Shown here: in pieces, positions 2,485 to 4,232 of the stretch
Layout of the letters: each line of letters starts with the position of its first letter
Position numbering within the stretch: position 1 is the first letter of the stretch
Source of the DNA: Nitrospirota bacterium
GTDB lineage: Bacteria; Nitrospirota; UBA9217
Length of the DNA: 64,000 nt
Assembly: GCA_963740085.1 (NCBI GenBank)
Contig: CAVUCU010000004.1
Location: 192,001 to 256,000, forward strand
Direction: 5' to 3'
The notes under the pieces: model-generated
What the model was told of the DNA's origin: nothing
Databases searched by the model: none
The model's input: the letters and a program-made list of their open reading frames with translations, nothing else
Position numbers and translations under genes: made by a program

Positions 2485-2959
2485 AGAGCTCAAAGAAATG
2501 GGGATTGTCGAGGAGCGTACCGCTGATATCGCCGAGGTCATCGCCCTGGTGACAAGGGCGGAACGGGACCTGGCAACGAGCAGGGTCTTGTATGATAAAG
2601 ATGAAGAGTGGGCTTTTGCGGCCGCTTACCAGGCCATGGCCCGTTCAGGAAAGGCGCTTATCCTGTCTGAGGGATTGAGAACCAGGGGTGTCCGCGGCAG
2701 GGATGCTCAAAAGACCGTGGTGACGGCAGCGGGCGTCATCCTGGGCGAACAGTACAAGAGTCTGATCAATAAATTCGACCGAATGAGAAGGAAGTATCAG
2801 AGCTTTGTCGAGGATGCCGGCAGGATCATCTCACGATACGAGGCGGGGCAGGCGATCAAGGACGCAGAAGAATTTATTGCCCTCGTGAACGGACGGATCC
2901 GCGAGAAGTATTCACAGATGTCACTGCTGAATGATGTTCCTCAGCTTGTTTCAAGATAA
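2474..2959 (+). CDS. HEPN-domain protein with degenerate RNase motif
   Basis: AERDL...WAFAAAYQAM pattern typical of MNT-associated HEPN; FDRMRRKYQSFVED lacks the Rx4-6H signature; overlaps the MNT gene. Confidence 0.75.
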   Translation: MNYKELKEMGIVEERTADIAEVIALVTRAERDLATSRVLYDKDEEWAFAAAYQAMARSGKALILSEGLRTRGVRGRDAQKTVVTAAGVILGEQYKSLINKFDRMRRKYQSFVEDAGRIISRYEAGQAIKDAEEFIALVNGRIREKYSQMSLLNDVPQLVSR

Positions 2960-3007
2960 GGCCGCTTGGGTCAAAAACGCGGTATGCCGAAAGGGGGTGG
3001 GCAAATA

Positions 3008-3073
3008 ATGGCAGCTAAGAAGAAAGCAGCTAAGAAGAAAGCGACCAAGAAGAAAGCAACCAAGAAGAAGTAG
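3008..3073 (+). CDS. 21-aa Lys/Ala-rich micro-protein MAAKKKAAKKKATKKKATKKK
   Basis: AAGGGGGTG RBS upstream, ATG...TAG, 15-nt coding periodicity with synonymous variation; too short for the ORF track. Confidence 0.7.
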   Translation: MAAKKKAAKKKATKKKATKKK

Positions 3074-3083
3074 CTTTTTTTGA

Positions 3084-3125
3084 AGTCCCTGGAGTGGGAC
3101 TGCCGGGGGCATGAATGCCCCCGGC
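3084..3125 (+). other. Two stem-loops between the micro-ORFs
   Basis: AGTCCC-TGGAGT-GGGACT and GCCGGGGGCA-TGAA-TGCCCCCGGC. Confidence 0.5.
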
Positions 3126-3221
3126 GTATTTACTGCAAGCGATTGTGCTGCCGGCATGTCCGGCCTCATGCATCTTTTTATAATGGGTCGATTTCCTGCG
3201 AGTGAAAGGGGGTGAAAATCC

Positions 3222-3281
3222 ATGGCTGCAAAGAAGAAGGCCCCGGCAAAGAAGGCGAAAAAGACGACCAAAAAGAAATAA
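3222..3281 (+). CDS. 19-aa Lys/Ala-rich micro-protein MAAKKKAPAKKAKKTTKKK
   Basis: Same AAGGGGGTG RBS and same MAAKKKA start as 3008-3073 with different codons; ATG...TAA. Confidence 0.7.
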   Translation: MAAKKKAPAKKAKKTTKKK

Positions 3282-3324
3282 GGTGATAGATGGAGATTCA
3301 TTATTATTAATGATTGAAACTCTG

Positions 3325-3355
3325 CCACGAAGAAAATCTTCGTGGTTTTGTTTTT
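3325..3355 (+). terminator. Rho-independent terminator
   Basis: CCACGAAGA-AAA-TCTTCGTGG followed by TTTTGTTTTT. Confidence 0.75.
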
Positions 3356-3893
3356 CCACAAGAAGACGAGCATGTTTTCCTTTATTAAAACAGATGCAAT
3401 ATATACTGACACTGTTCTGTCCCTCACCCCCTCGTCATTGCGGCTCGACTGAGCGAGTCGAAATCTCAATGCAGCGTTATTCTCTCCCCGGTGGCGAGAG
3501 GGGAATTCCGCAGGAACGCAGCAATTATTGCTGATCTCATTAAAAGTCATGATCGAGCGCCGGGACACGGAGAATGCCCTTTGAAACAATATGGATTTTT
3601 TCTGCGCCCTCCGGGCCTCTGCGGTAAAATTTGACTCATTGCGAATGGAGCCGTTATTCTTTTTTCTATTATTTCCTTTGTAATAGGTCCGGGATGGGCG
3701 CATCGGCCGGGGATGAAACTAAGAGGGACATTTACACATGGAAGCCCCGGATTTATCATGGGATAAAAACGGATGAAAAAAGAGTCAATATTCGTTATAA
3801 TCCGTCAGCCAAAGGGTAAACTGCATTCCCGGAATAAAGACGACCTTATCCGGGTCTTCTCTGCGTTAATCCGCGGCAATTTCTTTTTAACTC

Positions 3894-4232
3894 ATGACGG
3901 TATCAATGCGTAAACGCAACTATTTAAAGACAGAGCGGAGTTCCCGGAGAGCCCGTTGGAAAGCGCCCCTTATTGCCGCAGGCGTTCTCCTCGTGCTCTA
4001 CTTTCTGGTCACGCGCGTCATGGGTGAGATGGGAGTGGTAAAATACTATCGGATGAAGGCTCAATACACCGCACTGACGAATGATATCGCCAAACTCAAG
4101 CAGGACAACGGCAAACTCAGGAAGGAAGTCTTCTCTCTCAAAAGCGATTCCGCCTATCTCGAAAGGGTGGCCCGTGATAAACTGGGGCTTGCGCGTCCGG
4201 GAGAGATAGTGTACTATTACGGTGAACCGTGA
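3894..4232 (+). CDS. ftsB: Septum formation initiator FtsB/DivIC
   Basis: Single TM, coiled coil, YLERVARDKLGLARPGEIVY signature. Confidence 0.85.
   Translation: MTVSMRKRNYLKTERSSRRARWKAPLIAAGVLLVLYFLVTRVMGEMGVVKYYRMKAQYTALTNDIAKLKQDNGKLRKEVFSLKSDSAYLERVARDKLGLARPGEIVYYYGEP

Follow-up and report, generated by a model that had tools for sequence, protein, structure and literature searches.

Conserved oligolysine micro-genes behind a dead MNT-HEPN pair in Nitrospirota, candidate free-standing histone-tail-like polycations

Background

Linker histone H1 combines a winged-helix globular domain with a Lys-rich tail. Bacterial proteins of tail-like composition are known: Hc2/HctB and other H1-like proteins (PF07382 HC2; histone_lik_HC2, hist_H1_lk_Burk) consist of Lys/Ala/Thr/Pro pentamer-type repeats and vary in size with repeat number, Hc2 being reported to range from 165 to 237 aa through differing numbers of lysine-rich pentamers (PMC2848022). 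AlgP of Pseudomonas aeruginosa, a histone-H1-like protein with a KPAA-repeat tail of 154 aa on a larger protein, is reported to bind polyanions (DNA, polyphosphate granules), to associate with the granules and to space them (PMC9239181).

The locus described here lies in a stretch of 64,000 nucleotides (the window; contig CAVUCU010000004.1, positions 192,001 to 256,000) from the 3.46-Mb genome of an uncultured member of Nitrospirota. Its two micro-genes, A and B, encode peptides of the same H1-tail-like character. They differ from Hc2/HctB in being only 19-21 aa long, in being arranged as two or three separately translated genes that lack a globular or N-terminal part, and in being tied to a gene for a winged-helix/MNT protein; the short ORF A matches no model. 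In contrast to the tail of AlgP, the tail-like peptide stands alone. Whereas the winged-helix module and the Lys/Ala/Pro/Thr tail of linker histone H1 are encoded together, the corresponding parts would here be separate polypeptides made from neighbouring genes. This resemblance is drawn as an analogy and does not imply that the winged helix and the globular domain of H1 are homologous.

The genes upstream resemble HepT-MntA type VII toxin-antitoxin (TA) systems in their MNT-then-HEPN order, overlapping ends, MNT fold and HEPN domain. The catalytic motif of the Pol-beta superfamily, to which MNT domains are compared below, is GS...DxD, and that of HEPN RNases is Rx4-6H. Unlike in HepT-MntA, the DxD motif is here replaced by N-I-N, the HEPN protein has no His, an ArsR-type winged helix is fused N-terminally to the MNT domain, the gene is mostly single-copy and polycation genes follow. 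A further comparison is with the tiny basic ribosomal proteins bTHX, bS22, bL37 and bL36, which are routinely missed by annotation. A length of 20-35 aa, a very basic character, a strong Shine-Dalgarno (SD) sequence and the usual lack of annotation are common to both groups, but the peptides described here have a pure K/A/T/P composition, no sequence or structure match and no ribosomal context.

A search of full-text literature found no paper on oligolysine micro-genes or on Nitrospirota H1-like proteins. The small ORF treated in a preprint on AbiV (10.1101/2024.05.05.592566) is unrelated. Bacterial histone-H1-like polycations as such are already known; what appears to be new is the extreme shortness, the multiple separately translated copies and the phylum-wide link to a domesticated antitoxin.

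Results

Two oligolysine micro-genes and their signals

The original prediction described a 21-aa and a 19-aa ORF made almost only of K, A and T, sharing a ribosome binding site and a MAAKKKA start. Translation of the window reproduced both with identical coordinates. The features of the unit are as follows.

2961-2983, + strand: hairpin 5' of the SD of ORF A, GCCGC / GCGGT; 5 pairs, 100% paired in 47 sequences; stem invariant, loop variable
2989-2999, + strand: SD of ORF A, GAAAGGGGGTG; invariant in aligned relatives; 8 nt before the ATG
3008-3073, + strand: micro-gene A, 21 aa, net charge +12; predicted translation MAAKKKAAKKKATKKKATKKK, then stop
3084-3101, + strand: hairpin 1 behind ORF A; 6 pairs, 77.5% of cells paired, 1 pair changed on both sides
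3101-3126, + strand: hairpin 2, GC-rich; 10 pairs, 93% paired, compensatory changes at 5 pairs; followed by a short T-tract (TATTT)
3204-3214, + strand: SD of ORF B, GAAAGGGGGTG; conserved in the 12-genome alignment; 7 nt before the ATG
3222-3281, + strand: micro-gene B, 19 aa, net charge +10; predicted translation MAAKKKAPAKKAKKTTKKK, then stop; conserved core KKAPAKKAKK
3324-3356, + strand: intrinsic terminator closing the unit; 10-pair stem (3324-3346) and T-run TTTGTTTTTC, both invariant in 12 genomes

ORF A contains 12 K, 6 A and 2 T in 21 residues, ORF B 10 K, 5 A, 2 T and 1 P in 19, and their common opening MAAKKKA is written with different synonymous codons. As had been remarked, the ORF track misses both: the listing has a floor of 20 aa, so that B is unlisted, and A appears only within a 35-aa frame with a TTG start. 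A genome-wide script looking for short ATG frames with at least 35% K and a visible SD returned only four: A and B themselves, another copy (the third) on contig C5, and an ORF on contig C1.

The 3' tail of the 16S rRNA of the source genome reads GGATCACCTCCTTTCT and pairs with both SD sites over 11 bases, including one G.U pair; by this measure the two sites would be about the strongest the organism could make. The window has three copies of the 9-mer AAGGGGGTG, where 0.46 would be expected, and the whole genome has 28.

The predicted hairpins between A and B and the intrinsic terminator behind B were likewise found, at 3084-3101 and 3101-3126 and at 3324-3356. Hairpin 2 is a candidate partial terminator or stabiliser. 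The idea that its CCCCC arm acts as a translational switch by SD/anti-SD pairing was rejected as not general: at the one locus read from another family (G036, f11) some 40 nt separate the two ORFs and contain no hairpin. In 51 loci of other families the predicted fold of the 45 nt ahead of the SD was compared with that of mononucleotide shuffles and was the more stable (median z -2.0; z < -2 in 25 of the 51), and the hairpins there occupy the same position with quite different sequences. Rfam, searched over the unit at E <= 10, gave no family, the best match scoring 21.7 bits against a cut-off of 45 (E 2.7). Beyond the terminator, about 530 nt (3357-3893) hold no long conserved frame before ftsB (3894-4232), and this stretch is unconserved in the 12-genome alignment.

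Conservation and coding selection within the family

The 401-nt unit was matched in all 24 other genomes of the same family, in 15 of them over nearly its full length with 67-91% identity. An alignment of 12 genomes showed little or no variation in the SDs, starts, stops, hairpin stems and terminator; the spacer from hairpin 2 to the SD of B varies freely in length and cannot be aligned, and the sequence past the terminator is unrelated. Relatives' loci were also collected by a scan with the HEPN protein, one genome per species. It gave 48 loci, of which 47 are titled Nitrospirota, Nitrospirae, Nitrospiria or Nitrospiraceae and one (L044) Betaproteobacteria.

ORF A is kept in 47 of 47 assessable loci; the remaining locus (L021) ends 67 nt past HEPN and is unassessable. 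ORF B is kept in 44 of 46; of the other two, L038 has a variant of 17 aa and L059 a form whose tail diverges, and the sequence of L041 breaks off too early. At two loci a second copy of A is present in addition to A and B. Frame, ribosome binding site and linkage, whose conservation in relatives the original prediction had named as one of its tests, are conserved in these loci.

Within length classes the variable sites fall mostly in third codon positions; in the 18-aa B there are 4, 1 and 17 at positions 1, 2 and 3. Mean pN/pS is 0.00-0.17 overall (A 0.00-0.16, B 0.06-0.17). GCN codons take all four third bases and AAR codons change only at the third base, while length differences inside the ORFs consist of whole codons, in multiples of three. 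The third-position changes and the in-frame indels indicate that the A and B peptides are under selection. Constraint on a purine tract in the RNA was considered and rejected, since it would not produce the codon periodicity seen. Many relatives lack the in-frame ATG that lies further upstream, at 2984, and the start of A is therefore placed at 3008. Because the whole unit of about 400 nt is conserved in relatives, A and B lie far beyond chance, and we take them as real conserved genes whose peptides, presumably translated, are under purifying selection.

The upstream genes and their promoter

1866-1895, + strand: sigma-70-like operon promoter TTGACA-18-TATATT; 11/12 matches; both hexamers invariant or nearly so in 46 aligned upstream regions
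1868-1900, unstranded: inverted repeat GACAAA ... TTTGTC around the promoter spacer and -10; both arms invariant or at least 90% conserved in 46 sequences
1918-2484, + strand: winged-helix and MNT-antitoxin-fold protein, 188 aa, GTG start; Pfam Polbeta 1.9e-8 and HTH families
2474-2959, + strand: HEPN-domain protein, 161 aa; overlaps the upstream gene by 11 nt; Pfam PF05168 5e-9

The 188-aa protein, known to databases only as 'predicted nucleotidyltransferase', 'transcriptional regulator with HTH' or 'hypothetical', carries a winged helix of ArsR/SmtB type at its N-terminus and a nucleotidyltransferase domain at its C-terminus. The best Foldseek matches of its AlphaFold model (pLDDT 85.7) were MntA antitoxins, 7bxo_E (E 1.8e-4), 8xeo_B and 8xeh (HEPN-MNT complex), and those of the N-domain were SmtB/SqrR/HlyU repressors. 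An MNT fold thus adjoins a HEPN gene, as in type VII systems, but the catalytic GS...DxD of those systems is absent: the place of the motif reads GSYAKGAEKEDSNIN, the dyad being N-I-N in the window's protein and N-[IV]-N in all the close relatives scanned. The proteins of other families mostly have one acidic residue or none in the dyad; D/E-I-D/E is kept in variants that are assigned, by their counts, to family f2. The HEPN protein of the window contains no histidine and so no Rx4-6H motif. The Rx4H place reads RMRRKY, or RMRRKH in three relatives, and R-x(4-6)-H is absent anywhere in 37 of 56 HEPN loci. The earlier description of the two genes as a dead MNT-HEPN pair is, on these motifs, a fair one.

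The inverted repeat at 1868-1900 is a candidate operator for the winged-helix protein, and a promoter with such a flanking repeat is what would be expected of an autoregulated antitoxin-type operon. A further invariant box (1815-1835, TGTTGATAAATTGTCTAAC), about 50 nt upstream of the promoter, repeats the words GTTGAYAAA and TTGTC found in the inverted repeat around the promoter and may be a second operator.

A polycation family across Nitrospirota

A counterpart of the 188-aa protein was found in 129 of 301 sampled Nitrospirota genomes, with 35-61% identity outside the source family. The DNA behind the counterpart gene was taken from 70 loci (69 genomes, 17 other families), 69 of which could be assessed. 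In 65 of the 69 our script found a Lys-rich ORF with an SD starting at most 260 nt behind the stop of the winged-helix/MNT gene, or of the HEPN gene where one is present; under a relaxed inspection the count rises to 67, the ORFs of L073 and L135 having failed the script's filter. The 260-nt search behind the winged-helix/MNT gene detected no Lys-rich ORF in L123 and in L077, the latter a paralogue with HEPN. These counts overstate the number of independent observations, the loci being kin; the arrangement was seen in 16 of the 17 families sampled. The ORFs lie about 30-130 nt behind the preceding gene.

Among the sampled families, a HEPN gene beside the winged-helix/MNT gene is confined to the family of the source genome and three others, plus the paralogous locus L077; therefore the conserved pair is that of the winged-helix/MNT gene and the polycation gene. 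The four-gene module put forward originally stands as a conserved unit in the source family, but the phylum-wide partner of the micro-genes is the winged-helix/MNT gene and not the MNT-HEPN pair. The further proposal that the peptides are ligands of this pair does not fare well. Both proteins are basic (pI 9.5 for the 188-aa protein, 9.1 for HEPN), which makes electrostatic binding of a +10 or +12 peptide unlikely, and a role of MNT and HEPN as acidic chaperones of the peptides was rejected for the same property.

The polycation ORFs start with MA[AT]KK behind the SD GAAAGG[GA]GGTGA and occur one, two or three per locus. Their lengths form a continuous series, 13-108 aa by the script and up to 138 aa overall, with 13-28 aa in many families. 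The long forms are Lys/Ala/Thr/Pro repeat proteins of AKKTT type. When ten of them were compared with Pfam HC2, one passed (46.7 against a cut-off of 40 bits), six matched below the cut-off and three did not match; the NCBIfam Hc2 and Burkholderia H1-like models matched long forms below their cut-offs (38.4 against 135 and 37.3 against 80). The resemblance of the long forms to Hc2 is for the most part one of composition. The label 'histone-tail-like', which the original prediction gave to A and B, is nevertheless apt, their positional counterparts growing continuously to 138-aa repeats that match Hc2 models. As far as position and sequence can tell, A and B are the short end of a Nitrospirota histone-H1-tail-like family, split into separately translated pieces. 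No fusion of a winged-helix/MNT protein to a Lys tail was found; the search, which is weak evidence, gave one 375-aa mis-called frame without a Lys tail.

In families f2 and f6 (L061, L062, L071-L076) the Lys-rich peptides end in cysteine, e.g. ...KKGKC and ...KKKKC, and those of f2 start with GTG or TTG.

Database comparisons

ORF A gave no match in Pfam, NCBIfam or PDB at E up to 10; the protein searches need at least 20 aa, one more than ORF B has, and these negatives concern ORF A. ORF A thus did not reach the curated cut-off of the Hc2 family models (PF07382, NF038052), and no known small ribosomal protein was recognised by sequence or by solved-ribosome chain. The Lys/Ala/Pro/Thr low-complexity composition of the Hc2 family is found in both A and B. 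Exact look-ups in a collection of 15 billion proteins showed that A is absent from it, and so are the most frequent variant of A, the third copy, two peptides from a single other family and ten counterparts of 54-138 aa.

Transcription

Metatranscriptome contigs at least 85% like the window (4 runs from 4 studies) cover MNT, HEPN, A with its hairpins, and B. Of these contigs, one spans 2915-3115 and differs from the window at two positions, a second runs from HEPN into A (2798-3079) and a third covers 3233-3358. These are assembled contigs from relatives, silent on level, ends and strand and open to DNA carry-over; they fit co-transcription of HEPN and A. In each of the four RNA runs summed contig depth peaked in the bins over ORF A, but this depth is inflated by Lys-rich contigs of other organisms, cannot rank genes and is given no weight; nor does the lack of cover over 3375-3575 count as evidence. 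ORF A showed no sigma-70-like promoter of its own, and ORF B showed none that is conserved. Conserved bases at the 3' end of HEPN were considered as a promoter of ORF A and rejected, since they change at third codon positions and the coding of HEPN accounts for their conservation. If hairpin 2 were an efficient terminator, B would need a promoter of its own, and none was found.

Discussion

The reading that we favour, with a probability of roughly 0.6, is that A and B are translated, that their products are free-standing oligolysine polycations binding to DNA or to another polyanion, and that both genes are under the control of an autoregulated operon derived from a dead antitoxin. The promoter at 1866-1895 would drive the operon, of which the micro-genes would be the last cistrons. 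Its first product, a winged helix fused to a catalytically dead MNT domain and followed in the source family by a dead HEPN partner, most likely binds the inverted repeat on its own promoter, here perhaps together with HEPN, and so would set the dose of polycation. The hairpin before each SD, the 11-nt SD itself and the hairpins and terminator behind could delimit small, stable and strongly translated mRNA segments; through such differential stability much peptide might be made from little regulator. The +12 and +10 peptides would then bind polyanions electrostatically. Chromosomal DNA is ranked first as the target by analogy with Hc2 and AlgP, and polyphosphate follows as a real alternative because AlgP is reported to associate with polyphosphate granules (PMC9239181); RNA and ribosomes would come after.

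A stronger version, which we regard as speculative and probably not correct as it stands, would see a two-part linker-histone-like system in which the dead-MNT winged-helix protein and free oligolysine tails supplied in trans by 13-28-codon genes act jointly on the nucleoid, the whole descending from a domesticated HEPN-MNT operon whose toxin slot was taken by the polycation gene.

Several other explanations have to be weighed against the favoured reading. One of them, unlikely on balance and yet to be reckoned with, is that the polycations have a target other than the chromosome, coating polyphosphate granules or RNA or acting as small basic proteins associated with the ribosome. The reported association of AlgP, an H1-like protein with a KPAA-repeat tail, with polyphosphate granules (PMC9239181) gives the first variant a precedent, and the very strong SD fits an abundant product. 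The ribosomal variant can appeal to the ease with which tiny basic ribosomal proteins escape annotation. It has to contend with the absence of a match of ORF A to any PDB chain, ribosomal or other, or to any family model, and with a context that is never ribosomal, a winged-helix DNA-binding gene being present in 65-67 of the 69 loci. Small ribosomal proteins, moreover, usually contain Arg and aromatic residues, and the peptides have neither. An improbable explanation is that the module still works in the manner of a TA system, the polycation being the harmful partner in the place of HEPN and the winged-helix/MNT protein its antidote or repressor. In families without HEPN the Lys-rich ORF does lie 32-130 nt behind the MNT-like gene, which is the toxin slot; the MNT domain folds like MntA antitoxins, an operator-like repeat is conserved on the operon promoter, and over-production of histone-H1-like proteins such as chlamydial Hc1 is toxic to bacteria. 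The gene, however, is mostly single-copy and its identity to the window's protein tracks taxonomy, which fits a housekeeping gene and not a mobile TA system. The loss of the MNT catalytic dyad also speaks against it, and direct neutralisation of the polycation is unlikely with both proteins basic.

We give very little credence to the ORFs being regulatory, whether as lysyl-tRNA-sensing leader peptides of Lys codons or as purine tracts at the RNA level that control termination at the hairpins. A hairpin with a T-tract does follow each ORF, but no sequence or gene is conserved past the second terminator, and the next gene on the same strand is ftsB, about 530 nt on. Nor does the arrangement at the f11 locus (see above), the lack of an Rfam match or the presence of 60-138-aa proteins in the same slot in other families agree with it, and what is kept is the peptide sequence (the core of B), not merely Lys content, variation being confined to third positions. 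Finally, A and B might be frames that arose by chance in a spacer that is structured but non-coding, or they might belong to a gene on the minus strand, where long frames are present (250 aa, 2951-3703; 109 aa, 3030-3359); low-complexity AAG repeats can also arise by slippage. The codon periodicity on the plus strand and the invariant SD, ATG and stop speak for ORFs on that strand. A minus-strand gene is excluded because the distance between the starts of A and B varies by non-multiples of three across an unalignable spacer, so that no frame spanning both is conserved. The comparative sequence data have, in our judgement, already refuted both forms of this explanation.

If the favoured reading is correct, bacterial H1-like polycations can shrink to 13-21 residues and yet stay under purifying selection across a phylum. 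They would form a gene class that is invisible to annotation pipelines, the exact peptides looked up being absent even from the 15-billion-protein collection. Their tie to one regulator derived from an inactivated MNT antitoxin offers, in one operon and one promoter repeat, a concrete handle on the organisation of DNA or polyphosphate in uncultured, environmentally important Nitrospirota, and the module would be an example of a TA operon recruited to a housekeeping role.

Other Lys-rich ORFs

The third copy found by the genome-wide script represents a third type of micro-gene, MACGKKCGTKKAVKKKATKKK (contig C5, 104581-104646, minus strand; L066 3082-3147). It has the same SD and two conserved cysteines (CGKKC) and is flanked by genes for a riboflavin kinase/FAD synthetase and for CbiX. 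Of 41 family genomes, 8 (counting the source genome) gave DNA matches to it, and each of the 8 loci keeps an intact ORF. The remaining ORF of the script, MAKSQQGSKKEVKKPKSKKK, is a 20-aa Lys/Ser-rich ORF with an SD (contig C1, 835654-835716, minus strand; L067) between genes for an FKBP-type isomerase and a WD40-repeat protein. On the same contig, near 1293091 on the minus strand, a 57-aa frame with a GTG start lies behind a AGAAAGGGGGTGA site. Lys-rich ORFs were also noticed in Nitrospirota genomes without an MNT-type gene: one of 37 aa (L064 3034-3147, minus strand) behind a HARE-HTH winged-helix gene, and one of 27 aa (L069 3049-3132, plus strand) standing alone in a spacer.
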